Below are positions 3,066-51,885 of a DNA stretch of 64,000 nt, piece after piece; the stretch's first letter is position 1, and every line of letters starts with the position of its first letter. Below the pieces are notes generated by a model. That model was not told where the DNA came from, made no database searches, and saw nothing but the letters and a program-made list of their open reading frames with translations. Location of the stretch: the NCBI GenBank assembly GCA_964386665.1, contig CAYLQP010000002.1, positions 105-64,104 of the forward strand, in the 5' to 3' direction. A program made the position numbers and the translations under genes. The DNA comes from an uncultured Candidatus Saccharibacteria bacterium. Lineage in GTDB: Bacteria; Patescibacteriota; Minisyncoccia; Phycocordibacterales; CAIRYW01.

Positions 3066-3638
3066 CTAATAGAGTGTTCGAATCGCTCGTTCAAACCTAT
3101 TTGCTGCAGAAACATTACAAGTGCTGTATCCTCTTGATTCGATTTCAGTCGAAACGGTAACGTTGCTATCGTTGGATCTTTTAGTGATGTATACATCAAA
3201 ACAAATTGGGTTATTTTGTATATATGTACGCTCAACACGAATCACTGTTGTAGTATATTCAAAACCATTTACATCCACACCATCTGAATCAATTCCCATT
3301 GTTGCAGAAGGACCATTAATCCCTCCATTAATATTTAATATCACTCCATCAAACATATATGAATGATTTGATACATCACAGATACTGGTGCTTCCTGGTA
3401 ATGGAAAGATTCCATCTGGACAATCTTCTGTATTGTCTCCCCCTCTGTCTAGAAACAAAGCAAATTCAGTGCCCGTATCAGCTGCATAAAACGCTTTTTG
3501 AGATTCTCTTCCTGCTGAAGAAAGAGTGATTTGCTTGATAGTGATAGAAAGAATTGCAAGTCCAATCGCAAGAACAAGGCTCCCTACAAGCGATGCAAAG
3601 AGTACAGAAAATCCTTTTTGTGTATTTTTTTTATTCAT
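3066..3638 (-). CDS. Minor pilin-like protein (prepilin-type N-terminus lacking Glu5)
   Basis: The N-terminus MNKKNTQKGFSVLFASLVGSLVLAIGLAIL resembles a class III signal peptide but has no E at +5, as seen in GspK/PilX-type minor pilins. It is the last gene of the pilin cluster. Confidence 0.6.
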   Translation of the reverse strand: MNKKNTQKGFSVLFASLVGSLVLAIGLAILSITIKQITLSSAGRESQKAFYAADTGTEFALFLDRGGDNTEDCPDGIFPLPGSTSICDVSNHSYMFDGVILNINGGINGPSATMGIDSDGVDVNGFEYTTTVIRVERTYIQNNPICFDVYITKRSNDSNVTVSTEIESRGYSTCNVSAANRFERAIRTLY

Positions 3639-47831: not shown

Positions 47832-47903
47832 GGCCCTATCGTCTAACGGTTAGGACGAAGCGTTCTCAATGCTTAAATCAGAGTTCGATTCTCTGTAGGG
47901 TCA
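47832..47903 (+). tRNA. tRNA-Glu(CUC)
   Basis: Hand-folded. The acceptor is GGCCCUA/UAGGGUC (one G-U). The D-arm is GUC-UAACGGUUAG-GAC. The anticodon arm is AAGCG-UUCUCAA-UGCUU. The T-arm is CAGAG-UUCGAUU-CUCUG. The discriminator is A. Confidence 0.8.
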
Positions 47904-47934
47904 CAATAGAGAGAGCTAGTTCGAGCACTCGAGA
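47901..47934 (+). repeat. 34-bp direct repeat, copy 1 (begins in the last 3 nt of tRNA-Glu)
   Basis: TCACAATAGAGAGAGCTAGTTCGAGCACTCGAGA, identical to 48854-48887. Confidence 0.9.
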
Positions 47935-47952
47935 GGGGTCGAAAGACTCTTG

Positions 47953-47983
47953 TAAAAATACACCTTTAATTAGGTGTATTTTT
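47953..47983 (+). terminator. Hairpin plus T-run after tRNA-Glu (also a perfect DNA palindrome)
   Basis: AAAATACACCtttaattagGGTGTATTTTTG. Arms of 10 bp around a TTAATT centre. Confidence 0.6.
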
Positions 47984-47998
47984 GTATATAATAAGAGT

Positions 47999-48760
47999 AT
48001 GGATTTAGTAACAGCAGGCACAATTACATATTTAGGAAAACAACTTCTAGGCAAAACCTTTGATGTTATAAGTTCTGACATTGCAGATTTATATAAATCG
48101 GGCAGAGATAGAATTATTGAAAAATCAACAAAAAAGATTTCTAACCTAGACGATGGAAAAACAGCAAATCTTCGAGTGGCACGAGATGTTTTTTGGAATG
48201 GGTCTTTTACTGACGATGCTATTTGTGCTGAGTATTTTGGAGGTATCCTGGCTTCATCTAGGAGTGTCGATGGGAAAGATGATAGTGGAGTGTATTATGT
48301 TGATTTAATTAAATCTTTGTCATCAAGCCAATTATCACTGCATTACTTAATATATTTCTGCCTTAATCAAACATTTATAAAAAAAAGCGAAAAGAAATCT
48401 TTGAATGTAGGGCAAGAGAGCGAACTTCAAAGAGAAAAAATATTTATCTCTTTGAATGAGTTGAGTAGTATATTAAAATCAGATTTAGGTCGCGACCTGC
48501 ACGCATTGCATGCAAAAGGCTTGATTGGAGAATTCCAGACTGGTCATCACGATCTTAAAAACGGAGATAAAATTCCAAATTTGAGAGTTGCCCCCAAAAC
48601 ACTAGGTGTCCAACTTTTTGCTGTAGCTCATAACAAAATTGACGAGTGGCGTAATTTTCCAACCTTTGAATTTAGTAAGTTTGAAGAACTAGGAGTTCCA
48701 AATTTTTACGGATCAAACATAACTGAGTTATTAGAAAAAGCTGGTATTAAAGACGAATAG
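47999..48760 (+). CDS. Hypothetical protein (island gene A)
   Basis: 253 aa from MDLVTAGTITYLGKQ. The track ORF from 47813 reads through the tRNA and the repeat, so I trimmed it. No recognisable motif. Confidence 0.55.
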   Translation: MDLVTAGTITYLGKQLLGKTFDVISSDIADLYKSGRDRIIEKSTKKISNLDDGKTANLRVARDVFWNGSFTDDAICAEYFGGILASSRSVDGKDDSGVYYVDLIKSLSSSQLSLHYLIYFCLNQTFIKKSEKKSLNVGQESELQREKIFISLNELSSILKSDLGRDLHALHAKGLIGEFQTGHHDLKNGDKIPNLRVAPKTLGVQLFAVAHNKIDEWRNFPTFEFSKFEELGVPNFYGSNITELLEKAGIKDE

Positions 48761-48853
48761 TATCTACTCGAGAGAGGTCGTTCTTATTATTTTAACGATA
48801 GCTAAATAAGTTTTACCTCGTAATGAAATCATTGGGTTCTATCTCGAGAAAGT

Positions 48854-48887
48854 TCACAATAGAGAGAGCTAGTTCGAGCACTCGAGA
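48854..48887 (+). repeat. 34-bp direct repeat, copy 2
   Basis: Identical to 47901-47934. It ends 8 nt before the ATG of island gene B. Confidence 0.9.
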
Positions 48888-48894
48888 AGGATAT

Positions 48895-49389
48895 ATGTAT
48901 ACAGAACTTTTAGGAAAATTAATCTCAAATCTATGGTCTCTTGAGACTGTTATTAGGTATTTTATTTCTATAAGATTAAATGAATCAACACCCGATATTT
49001 ATGAAATAGAAATTGGTGATGAGGTTGAGGATAGTTATTTTACTAATTTTAAAAGTCTAGATCAATTAATTGAAAAGTATAATTCTCTGTGCTCTCATGA
49101 TTTTCAAAAGATTGATAAGGAAAGAGTTTTAGATATAAGGGATTTACTTGCTCATGGAAGAATACACGTAACTGATAAAATAGATGCAAATAACTGGTAT
49201 TTAGTTAAGTTTAGTGATCCTAAAAAAGATAGTGGAAAAAAAATAATGCTAACCCACAAGGTAAAACCCAATAATGATTCAGGTGCGTGGATAAAAGAAA
49301 GTATAAAATTTATTTCTGAACAACTACACAGGGTTGGAAAAAGTGGTAACTTTGAAATTATTCAGAACAAAAAGACTACTCGAGAATAG
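48895..49389 (+). CDS. Hypothetical protein with R-x4-H (HEPN-like) motif (island gene B)
   Basis: 164 aa from MYTELLGKL. It contains VLDIRDLLAHGRIHV. The track ORF start at 48823 lies upstream of and runs through the repeat. Confidence 0.5.
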   Translation: MYTELLGKLISNLWSLETVIRYFISIRLNESTPDIYEIEIGDEVEDSYFTNFKSLDQLIEKYNSLCSHDFQKIDKERVLDIRDLLAHGRIHVTDKIDANNWYLVKFSDPKKDSGKKIMLTHKVKPNNDSGAWIKESIKFISEQLHRVGKSGNFEIIQNKKTTRE

Positions 49390-49488: not shown

Positions 49489-49893
49489 ATGAACTCCTAC
49501 AACTGGTACTCACAATTAATCAGACCTACGTGGTCACCTCCCGGATGGCTTTTTGGTCCTGTATGGTCGGTGCTTTATACCATCATTGCGGTTTCGTTTG
49601 GAACGGTCTTTTACAAAGCATTCACAAAACAGATTCCTTGGTTTGTTGCACTTCCCTTCGCACTAAACTTACTCTTCAACTTCATCTTTACTCCAATCCA
49701 ATTTGGACTCAAAAACAATCTTCTTGCAGCAATCGACATCTTGCTTGTACTTGCAACACTTATTTGGGCGCTTGTCTTACTTTGGAAAACAGTACCGAAT
49801 CTACATTGGGTAGTATATGCAAACATTCCCTACCTTCTCTGGGTGACATTCGCCACCTGCCTCCAACTCACCATCACGTATTTGAATAAATAA
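49489..49893 (+). CDS. tspO: TspO/MBR family tryptophan-rich sensory protein
   Basis: WYSQLIRPTWSPPGWLFGPVWSVLYTII and five TM helices. The stop codon is at 49891-49893, inside the 51-bp repeat. Confidence 0.85.
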   Translation: MNSYNWYSQLIRPTWSPPGWLFGPVWSVLYTIIAVSFGTVFYKAFTKQIPWFVALPFALNLLFNFIFTPIQFGLKNNLLAAIDILLVLATLIWALVLLWKTVPNLHWVVYANIPYLLWVTFATCLQLTITYLNK

Positions 49894-49894
49894 A
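49844..49894 (+). repeat. 51-bp perfect direct repeat, copy 1 (last 16 codons plus stop of tspO)
   Basis: TGACATTCGCCACCTGCCTCCAACTCACCATCACGTATTTGAATAAATAAA, identical to 51050-51100. Confidence 0.92.
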
Positions 49895-50983
49895 CTAGTG
49901 TCCTCTTTTTTTAATAAAGACCGGAGGTTTTTCTATTGGTGTACCTTTATCTGGAAACAATTCCACTATTTCATCCAAAATATATTTCCATGTTTTCATA
50001 TCTCTAAAACCATCACCTGGGGTCAGAAACAAATCTTCTCCATTTATTTTATTTGGCTTTAAAGAAGCATCAATTCCAAATTCTTGCGCTTTTGTTTGAA
50101 TCCGAGAAAAGAGCAACGGATCTATGGAATCTTTCTCAAACCCAATCATTTGCCTACCTGTGTACATATATTTCTCATTGATCCCTGAATATGTCGTTTT
50201 GTAGCCTTTTTTTGCAAGATGGATCACAGCATCTCTTACTTGAAACTCAAGCATCTCTTTAAAAACACCTATCCTCTCTTCATCTGCATCTGGTATAAGT
50301 TCTGACATATCAGTAACGCCATTCTCTTGCAACCTTCTTGCAAGAGAATGATCTGTTTCTTCTTTAAGTTTTGCTACTTCCACTTGATTTACTTTTGCAT
50401 TTCTTTCTTGTTCTTCCGTAAGAATATGAGGCTGACCATCAAGAAATCTGTCTATTGCCCCTCTGATTCCGAAGTGAATATCTTCTGACACCTCTTTACT
50501 AAAAGAGAGTGAATAATGACCATCATCAAGACGAAAAGTAATCCCATACTTATCTAATTGGGCTTGTAAATCTGCTGGCAGAGACTGTTCTTCTTTATTG
50601 AGAAGTGGAGATTTTTTTTGATTAAACTTAAATCTGTCTATAAAATTTTTAAAACGAATAAAAAGACGTGTAAACACCCCTGGTTCTTTTTTACCTTTCG
50701 AAGGCAAAGATCTGTCTGGAGATAACGAAAAACTTGTTCGAGGACCTTTCTCTTCTTGTCTTACTATATCGTTATCGTCGCCCGAATCTAGATTAAGTGA
50801 ATCTCTCACCTGTTTAGCCATACCCCTATCATCAGCCGCAGCTTCCACCACCTCAATTCCAGAACTTTCATTTTTATTTCCATTTCCTTCTAGAACCTTC
50901 GTATGCTCAGGAAAAAAGACTCCTGATTCTGATTTAGGTATTTCTCCTTTATCCGTATTGGAAGAATGCATTTCTGAGGACAT
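49895..50983 (-). CDS. Hypothetical protein (inserted gene C)
   Basis: 362 aa. The N-terminal 110 aa or so are acidic and Ser-rich and look disordered. The C-terminal 250 aa are globular with no recognised motif. Its stop codon abuts repeat copy 1. Confidence 0.55.
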   Translation of the reverse strand: MSSEMHSSNTDKGEIPKSESGVFFPEHTKVLEGNGNKNESSGIEVVEAAADDRGMAKQVRDSLNLDSGDDNDIVRQEEKGPRTSFSLSPDRSLPSKGKKEPGVFTRLFIRFKNFIDRFKFNQKKSPLLNKEEQSLPADLQAQLDKYGITFRLDDGHYSLSFSKEVSEDIHFGIRGAIDRFLDGQPHILTEEQERNAKVNQVEVAKLKEETDHSLARRLQENGVTDMSELIPDADEERIGVFKEMLEFQVRDAVIHLAKKGYKTTYSGINEKYMYTGRQMIGFEKDSIDPLLFSRIQTKAQEFGIDASLKPNKINGEDLFLTPGDGFRDMKTWKYILDEIVELFPDKGTPIEKPPVFIKKRGH

Positions 50984-51049
50984 ATCTTGATTATCGAATA
51001 TTAATTTATATAACTATAATAACATACCGCTACTGTTTTTTATTATAAC

Positions 51050-51100
51050 TGACATTCGCCACCTGCCTCCAACTCACCATCACGTATTTGAATAAATAAA
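51050..51100 (+). repeat. 51-bp perfect direct repeat, copy 2
   Basis: Identical to 49844-49894. It reconstitutes a tspO 3' end with no gene attached. Confidence 0.92.
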
Positions 51101-51138
51101 AAAGGACCATCAATTTCTTGATGGTCTCACAATACAAA

Positions 51139-51885
51139 TCACCGCACCTCTAATCCTGCCTCCCTGTAGACAGTAGAAACATAATCATTCCACGCCGGAC
51201 TGTTTTCGTTACCTCCAGAACGTTTCCAGGCCTGATACCAATCCAGGCTATCAGAGTTTGGAATGATGCCGTACTTTTCAATAGACGGCACTATCGCAAA
51301 GCGACAAGACTGAGCCCACGCGTACTTTTCGGACCTGATCAATTCATCTGTGTTTTGATGCGTTTTACCGCGATCAAAAACCAAATGTTCAAGTTCGTGA
51401 TGGATCGAAGAAAGAAAACTTACTTTGAGCTGCTGTTCAAAATTTTCTTTTGATACAGAGCGCAAGCTTTCTGCTATATCCATCTGTCTCTGCACCACAA
51501 TCTCTATCACCGGGACACCCTGGTCAAACCACGCCCCTGCCGCTACAGTACGACTTTTGTAATGATAGGTCGTGATTAACCGCACTGCAACGGGTTTTGA
51601 ATAGAGCAACTCTATTTGTTCCCGAAGCTCAGTGACACGACCCTGAACTTCAGTGAACGTGGACTTCCCTTCAAACAGCTCGTTGAAGGTTTTTTCCAAG
51701 CAGGTTGTCCAAAAACGTTTCTGCGCATCCTCAGACCGATCAGAAAAGACTGGAACATAATTACTGATCGACGGTTCGTCGGCAGTCTTGTGCTCAGTAT
51801 TTTTCCGATTTGACGACATGAACAGTGGCAGAACGATTAACACACTAACCAACAGAGCAAGGATAATAGGAATTTTTGATTTCAT
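51139..51885 (-). CDS. Membrane-anchored putative zinc metallopeptidase (HExxH)
   Basis: N-terminal TM/signal helix (IPIILALLVSVLIVLPLF). HHELEHLVF is an HExxH motif. G+C content is visibly higher than the flanks. Confidence 0.55.
   Translation of the reverse strand: MKSKIPIILALLVSVLIVLPLFMSSNRKNTEHKTADEPSISNYVPVFSDRSEDAQKRFWTTCLEKTFNELFEGKSTFTEVQGRVTELREQIELLYSKPVAVRLITTYHYKSRTVAAGAWFDQGVPVIEIVVQRQMDIAESLRSVSKENFEQQLKVSFLSSIHHELEHLVFDRGKTHQNTDELIRSEKYAWAQSCRFAIVPSIEKYGIIPNSDSLDWYQAWKRSGGNENSPAWNDYVSTVYREAGLEVR

Follow-up and report, generated by a model that had tools for sequence, protein, structure and literature searches.

Cis-mobilizable elements (CIMEs) are remnants of ICEs (integrative and conjugative elements) or IMEs (integrative and mobilizable elements), flanked by attachment (att) sites and situated in the 3' ends of genes, e.g., those of the Streptococcus ICESt1/3 family at fda (PMC5704250). 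Both att sites of around 40 nt flanking integrated elements and att-flanked derivatives devoid of a recombinase are established (PMC5704250; bioRxiv 10.1101/2020.12.28.424599), and the tycheposons of Prochlorococcus, which possess tyrosine recombinases and replication modules, target tRNA genes (bioRxiv 10.1101/2020.12.28.424599). The locus described here is found in a stretch of 64,000 nucleotides (in the following, the window) of contig CAYLQP010000002.1 from an uncultured Candidatus Saccharibacteria bacterium, in which the 3' end of the gene tspO is followed by an insert with a single gene, ORF362, between two copies of a 51-bp repeat. Bacteria of the Candidate Phyla Radiation (CPR), or Patescibacteria, have tiny genomes with few recognisable mobile elements, and the way in which they gain or swap accessory genes is poorly understood. 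We tentatively favour the reading that the insert (49895-51049) is an att-flanked, recombinase-less, CIME-like cassette that depends on a recombinase acting in trans and whose repeat has recombined recently; this seems the likeliest of the explanations considered, while staying somewhat short of an even chance. The insert and its target are composed as follows (coordinates are those of the window):

49489..49893, plus strand: tspO, the target gene, 134 aa, intact (Pfam TspO_MBR match 6.1e-26)
49844..49894, plus strand: repeat copy 1 (attL-like), the last 15 2/3 tspO codons, the stop codon and 1 nt; 51/51 identity to copy 2
49895..50983, minus strand: ORF362, 362 aa, the sole cargo gene (from the listing of open reading frames, ORFs); its stop codon, 49895-49897, touches copy 1
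50984..51049, minus strand: region upstream of ORF362, forming the right edge of the insert, with TATAAT at 51047-51042
51050..51100, plus strand: repeat copy 2 (attR-like), an orphaned piece of the tspO 3' end, preceded by sequence without relation to tspO

The two repeat copies, identical at all 51 positions and in direct orientation, constitute the longest local repeat within the window, and around 4e-22 such 51-mers would be expected by chance in 64 kb. Exactly, each copy comprises 2 nt of tspO codon 119, followed by codons 120-134, the stop codon and a single nucleotide beyond it. The original prediction of a perfect 51-bp duplication of the tspO 3' end is therefore borne out, whereas its wording of the extent, 16 codons plus stop, has to be corrected; equally, the 1155 bp between the copies contain one long ORF only, the minus-strand ORF of 362 codons whose stop abuts copy 1, as had been described. 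The repeat is bounded by mismatches on either side, the junctions exhibit no microhomology, and in an alignment of copy 2 with the tspO genes of relatives the similarity begins exactly at the first base of the copy. Known RNAs were not found at the repeat or in the insert.

Copy 1 completes an intact tspO. With 91.4 bits against the Pfam profile PF03073 (cut-off 24), the gene belongs to the TspO/MBR family, and its 134 aa are typical for the CPR subfamily, in which nearly all of 7990 homologues have this length and the C-terminus ...TITYLN[KR]. Copy 2, in turn, is an orphan, so that the geometry expected when an integration restores the 3' end of tspO, as originally proposed, is indeed present. 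No recombinase domain is found in the insert, and its only ORF matches neither Pfam nor PADLOC, in keeping with the gene content of a CIME. To the right, copy 2 is followed by two features on the opposite strand:

51105..51126, minus strand: intrinsic-terminator hairpin of the convergent 248-aa gene (terminator scan; DNA fold z = -2.2)
51139..51885, minus strand: 248-aa right-flank gene, orphan (GC content at third codon positions, GC3, 0.47)

The hairpin has a stem of 9 bp and a T-tract that extends over the final ~13 nt of copy 2. Since the orphan copy runs directly into this hairpin, the two together look like what was presumably the original downstream junction of tspO. For the 248-aa gene, which shows the most atypical codon usage in the window, no homologue exists among 5.8 billion clusters.

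Both junctions are real DNA in two samples. A Logan contig of SRR12762291 (L001, 1215 bp) consists of the insert and, on either side, exactly 30 nt of the repeat, and right-flank contigs from SRR12762291 and SRR12762304 end exactly 30 nt into copy 2, without any mismatch to the window. As both junctions are present in the raw k=31 graphs, the repeat is not the invention of one assembler. In addition, an independent assembly of the Joint Genome Institute (JGI) contains a 1309-bp contig (L010, JGI 3300037882, contig Ga0394681_163238) in which a full-length tspO is joined directly to a homologue of ORF362, and the left junction is hence chromosomal.

This relative also allows the age of the arrangement to be considered. 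Its tspO shares 94% of amino acids and 90.1% of nucleotides with that of the window (synonymous divergence, dS, 0.42), its ORF362 homologue 84.6% and 88.7%, respectively (dS 0.33), and the stop-to-stop junction between these genes is the one found in the window. The two sequences are similar only from ~26 nt upstream of the tspO ATG onwards, such that the block of tspO and ORF362 is shared and the left flank is different. The suggested comparison of tspO ends among relatives is informative in this contig only, which is occupied at the left junction. Concerning composition, ORF362 has a GC3 of 0.25 and a synonymous codon usage within the range of the housekeeping genes of the window; a foreign composition of the insert is rejected, the outliers being tspO (GC3 0.46) and the 248-aa gene. 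Together with the junction shared at a dS of about 0.37, this host-like codon usage suggests that the adjacency of tspO and ORF362 is old or co-inherited, and that only the repeat looks young. Over the 51-nt stretch, the window differs from its relative at six positions, whereas its own two copies do not differ at all. With dS taken as the neutral rate, a freely evolving duplication of the same age as the adjacency should have accumulated ~11 differences between its copies (P ~1e-5 for none). From an old adjacency with a perfect repeat, one of three histories would follow: the repeat was formed or re-formed recently, or it is being homogenised, or diverged versions of the cassette entered this site in the two lineages independently. 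The assumption that perfect identity implies a recent event may thus hold for the repeat; for the arrival of the gene, the shared junction and the host-like composition speak against it.

An intact target, an orphan 51-bp duplicate, one self-contained gene and a downstream junction displaced from its gene point to a crossover. A circular DNA with ORF362 and a duplicate of the terminal 51 bp of tspO would have undergone a reciprocal crossover with the chromosomal tspO end within the 51-bp identity, resulting in the order repeat, cassette, repeat; tspO would have been left intact, and its original junction with the terminator would have been displaced 1.2 kb downstream. Catalysis would most likely have been provided in trans, by a site-specific recombinase whose gene lies in another part of the genome or on a helper element, with a RecA-driven crossover over the 51-bp identity as the fallback. 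Because a relative at a dS of about 0.37 has the same left junction, the cassette does not appear to be a newcomer to the lineage, and because the two copies are perfectly identical, the repeat has probably recombined recently, by excision and re-integration or by conversion, rather than being an old fossil. The circular intermediate, the trans-acting enzyme and the timing are what we infer from this arrangement. In its geometry the locus agrees with the CIME/ICE-IME group, whereas its membership in this group is not established.

Several observations weigh against a trans-mobilized cassette. Derivation from an ICE or IME would be indicated by a cognate integrase or by an autonomous relative with the same att site; neither is found in the 64 kb or in the viral, phage and plasmid collections. 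As the original prediction had stated, there is no recombinase inside the insert, but the whole window does not encode any integrase, resolvase or transposase either and otherwise presents itself as an ordinary CPR chromosome (DnaB, RecR, LigA, Obg, pilins, PilD, GatCA, LepA, MurJ, RNase J, ABC-F, BipA, MsrB and TruB). Neither the repeat nor the ORF362 family is present in IMG/VR, the INPHARED phages or the PLSDB plasmids, and a phage or plasmid origin of cargo or repeat was rejected on these grounds. No empty site, no circular junction and no autonomous relative with the same att was found, the k=31 graphs being ambiguous in this respect; searches with the 248-aa neighbour in genome contigs (for an empty site or the right junction) and with ORF362 and a degenerate repeat pattern in metagenome contigs gave no match. 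The contig of the relative ends inside its ORF362 homologue, so that its right end is not recoverable. Within the repeat there is no hairpin, dyad or inverted-repeat structure (fold z = 0.14 against shuffled sequences), and the insert ends exhibit no terminal inverted repeats of at least 9 nt beyond A/T-rich chance matches. Furthermore, the host-like codon usage of ORF362 and its co-divergence with tspO fit a long-resident gene equally well. Finally, a second copy of the tspO end, even an approximate one, is present in none of 120 other CPR genomes (species representatives retrieved by a degenerate pattern for the last ten tspO codons, 90 of them with at least 1.5 kb of sequence downstream of tspO), by which tspO as a general insertion hot spot is rejected.

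A long-resident gene is the core of the strongest alternative, which we nevertheless regard as unlikely: an old, fixed and immobile insertion that predates the split of the window and its relative, with copies homogenised by RecA-dependent gene conversion from the selected coding copy and with pop-out deletions purged by selection for ORF362. The tspO/ORF362 junction shared at similar dS values (0.42 and 0.33), the native composition of ORF362 and the purifying selection acting on it (dN/dS 0.23) would be expected under such a history, as would the lack of a recombinase in the window, and as T-tract of the terminator the final ~13 nt of copy 2 are under constraint as well. However, gene conversion is inefficient between repeats of only 51 bp, and it would have had to outpace mutation over a dS of ~0.18 per lineage to leave zero differences even in the ~38 nt of copy 2 that are unconstrained; the origin of the duplication would still be left unexplained. 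Should the repeat be only such a homogenised relic, the finding would be an ordinary one.

The missing microhomology at both junctions and the mismatches that delimit the repeat speak against a recent recombinase-free rearrangement within the species, which would have produced the 51-bp duplication as a by-product and to which we assign a slightly lower likelihood still. It might have proceeded by homology-facilitated or Campbell-type integration of a taken-up, circularised molecule (repeat plus ORF362) from a conspecific donor with ORF362 already situated after tspO, or by a template switch during replication, in which ORF362 was copied and tspO was entered again 51 nt upstream of the point of exit. 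Either route would explain a perfect repeat despite the old adjacency, as well as the lack of a recombinase and of a structured site in the repeat; Patescibacteria can be naturally competent, and in another CPR genome (L051, see below) one ORF lies between the two copies of a comparable 31-nt repeat. Several rare steps are needed, though, and the donor must have carried the identical 51 bp, whereas the nearest relative differs at 6 of the 51 positions.

Hardly credible, finally, is an assembly artefact, a concern raised at the outset. In this case the chromosome would have an empty tspO-terminator site, the cassette would be confined to another strain or to a molecule of its own, circular or tandem, and the assembler would have joined the two by way of the 51 bp that they share. 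The contig does stem from a metagenome, and the k=31 graphs do not separate the repeat-insert-repeat order from an empty site plus a circle. However, both junction sequences are real in two samples, the left one is chromosomal in the independent JGI assembly, a circle of 1.2 kb that has a single ORF and lacks a replication gene does not make a plausible replicon, and even this reading implies an element bearing the repeat.

Concerning the cargo of the presumed trans-mobilized cassette, the dN/dS of 0.23 against the homologue in L010 indicates that ORF362 is a real gene under purifying selection; it contains an uncharacterised C-terminal domain that is found CPR-wide. No close full-length homologue exists among the 5.8 billion clusters, whereas 63 remote homologue clusters match residues ~190-362 in a full HMMER scan; these are hypothetical proteins of CPR bacteria, one of them named from Candidatus Taylorbacteria. 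The two closest homologues lie in genomic contexts without tspO, and a general link of the family with tspO is rejected, since among the 120 loci a member is found within 8 kb in one only (L111), where it is not adjacent. The N-terminus, previously called acidic and disordered, is mildly acidic (pI 4.9 for the first 100 residues, with 20 D+E versus 14 K+R), and residues 1-102 are predicted to be disordered (pLDDT <50). Structure prediction, put forward earlier as a check, gave a confident fold for the C-terminal 157 residues (206-362; AlphaFold, AF2, pLDDT 93.7 with a 34-sequence alignment). For this domain, Foldseek returned no match in PDB or BFVD at E<=0.001, and a sequence profile search of ORF362 against PDB yielded nothing significant. 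The cargo marks a confidently folded, uncharacterised domain widespread in CPR bacteria.

The core motif of residues 206-362 (window 49898-50368) reads E..LE.QVRDAV..L..KGY.T..SGF ... WK..WD. Domains of this type occur as tandem paralogues in the contigs L011-L016, duplicated within one protein in L111 (4045..5022) and fused to a nucleotidyltransferase domain in another protein (P0147). Upstream of ORF362, the perfect TATAAT (51047-51042, minus strand), which gives the gene a -10 box of its own, lies 2 nt from copy 2 and has no canonical -35 element, and the promoter scan omitted it for want of a qualifying one. Within the coding region there is a perfect hairpin with a 13-bp stem (50320-50350), and 14 nt (50434-50447) are exactly complementary to the terminator stem at 51113-51126; both may be due to chance.

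The target gene itself presents some peculiarities. Its Pfam match begins at profile position 22, the first helix seemingly being absent, and TspO proteins of 134 aa share 78-94% identity across thousands of contigs from many CPR classes. Either the constraint on tspO is unusually strong or tspO, whose GC3 is an outlier for this genome, is itself exchanged horizontally. Its neighbours differ among relatives, with a peptidoglycan-binding-like gene in L004-L006 and DinB in L007. A conserved 98-aa gene is situated 45 nt upstream of tspO in three of these contigs (L004 5659-5955, L005 5659-5955, L006 187-483), and as the further flanks differ, this gene and tspO may constitute a small co-transferred module in these lineages.

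In ~0.94 Mb of CPR tspO loci, only one structure is clearly comparable to the tspO insert. It is found in a contig of an uncultured Saccharibacteria bacterium (L051), where a 31-nt perfect direct repeat (2114-2144 and 3258-3288) flanks one ORF of 315 aa; copy 2 corresponds to the first 29 nt, ATG included, of the gene that follows, itself situated just upstream of tspO. From its sequence, this appears to be a one-gene insert of the same style, with a duplicated gene terminus. A further perfect repeat of 33 nt is present in L081 (3381-3413 and 5008-5040), beyond which the similarity extends imperfectly over another ~20 nt. One of its copies precedes tspO by 65 nt, the other precedes a membrane ORF of 125 aa, and the repeat may represent a shared leader or regulatory element.

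Within the window, a second one-gene insert is situated 1.9 kb from the tspO insert, next to a tRNA gene, in a small variable island that adjoins the locus on its left:

47832..47904, plus strand: tRNA-Glu(CTC), the anchor of the island (ARAGORN; Rfam tRNA 58.6 bits)
47901..48890, plus strand: second one-gene insert, with 37-nt direct repeats (47901-47937 and 48854-48890, identical at 36 of 37 positions) flanking an Abi-like ORF (47999..48760)

The 37-nt repeat begins at the last 4 nt of the tRNA gene. The ORF between the copies shows weak matches to Abi_alpha (8e-4) and to PADLOC PDC-S47 (5.5e-4); with 19.9 bits against a cut-off of 29 for Abi_alpha PF14337, it cannot be counted as a member of this family and the match is a lead only. 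The motif CTCGAG is concentrated behind the tRNA gene, where 5 of the 15 sites of the window lie within 1.5 kb (47927-49389; Poisson P ~1e-6), and the 8-mer ACTCGAGA is found at every unit boundary from tRNA-Glu to tspO, namely after the tRNA (47927), after the stop codon of the Abi-like ORF (48766), in copy 2 of the 37-nt repeat (48880) and over the stop codon of ORF164 (49378). Around the first two of these positions, the 16-mers 47926-47941 and 48765-48780 match at 14 of 16 sites. An insert between repeats identical at 36 of 37 positions and CTCGAG motifs at the unit boundaries point to local repeat-mediated accretion, and the island looks like a tandem accretion of mini-cassettes at one att core. 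The 51-bp repeat of tspO contains neither the CTCGAG motif nor ACTCGAGA, and motifs common to the two inserts were not found.

A bolder reading, which we consider doubtful, is that the lineage moves single-gene cassettes into the terminal 30-50 bp of conserved genes by means of a trans-acting recombinase or a short-homology route, with tRNA-Glu (with its CTCGAG-containing core) and tspO as targets and with the target end regenerated at each event. If true, this would amount to an integron-like gene capture without attC hairpins in ultra-small genomes, and the two copies of the tspO repeat would act as a functioning pair of att sites although the cassette has long been resident. Irrespective of this, two adjacent one-gene inserts without a recombinase and with duplicated target ends would provide a concrete example of minimal cassette-type gene flux.

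Compared with the systems described so far, the tspO insert is most similar to the CIMEs, with which it shares flanking direct repeats, one of them regenerating the 3' end of the target gene, and the lack of integrase and transfer genes, such that any mobility needs a recombinase in trans. The tandem accretion of CIMEs at one site (PMC5704250) also resembles the island beside tRNA-Glu. Despite this similarity there are clear differences: for the tspO insert, neither decayed integrase or conjugation remnants nor a related autonomous element are known, it comprises only 1.15 kb with one gene, its host belongs to the CPR and its target is tspO, the identity of 51 bp is longer than many att cores, and the cargo is compositionally native. 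Tycheposon islands likewise occur in streamlined genomes and possess att motifs of ~40 nt flanking their cargo (bioRxiv 10.1101/2020.12.28.424599), and successive integrations leave partial target copies between the units, as found beside tRNA-Glu; in contrast to tycheposons, the tspO insert has no recombinase and its target is protein-coding.

With integron cassettes, the insert has in common a single promoter-proximal gene that lacks a recombinase of its own and would be inserted by a trans-acting one. It was rejected as an integron cassette, however, since there is no attC-type imperfect hairpin (z = 0.14) and no integrase in the window; moreover, IntI and attI are missing and the flanking repeat consists of target-gene sequence. 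A transposon or insertion sequence was rejected as well, as neither a transposase nor terminal inverted repeats are present and the duplication measures 51 bp instead of 2-15 bp. Xer-dependent modules (IMEX, the pdif modules of Acinetobacter) are similarly small and recombinase-less and are moved by housekeeping recombinases, whereas the repeat studied here exhibits, by inspection and without the use of a dif model for CPR, neither the 11-6-11 dif-like architecture nor dyad symmetry. Taken together, the tspO insert is most probably a minimal element of a known kind in an under-studied phylum. Its one genuinely unexplained feature is the combination of an old adjacency with a perfect repeat, which at the same time offers a direct handle on whether the site still recombines.

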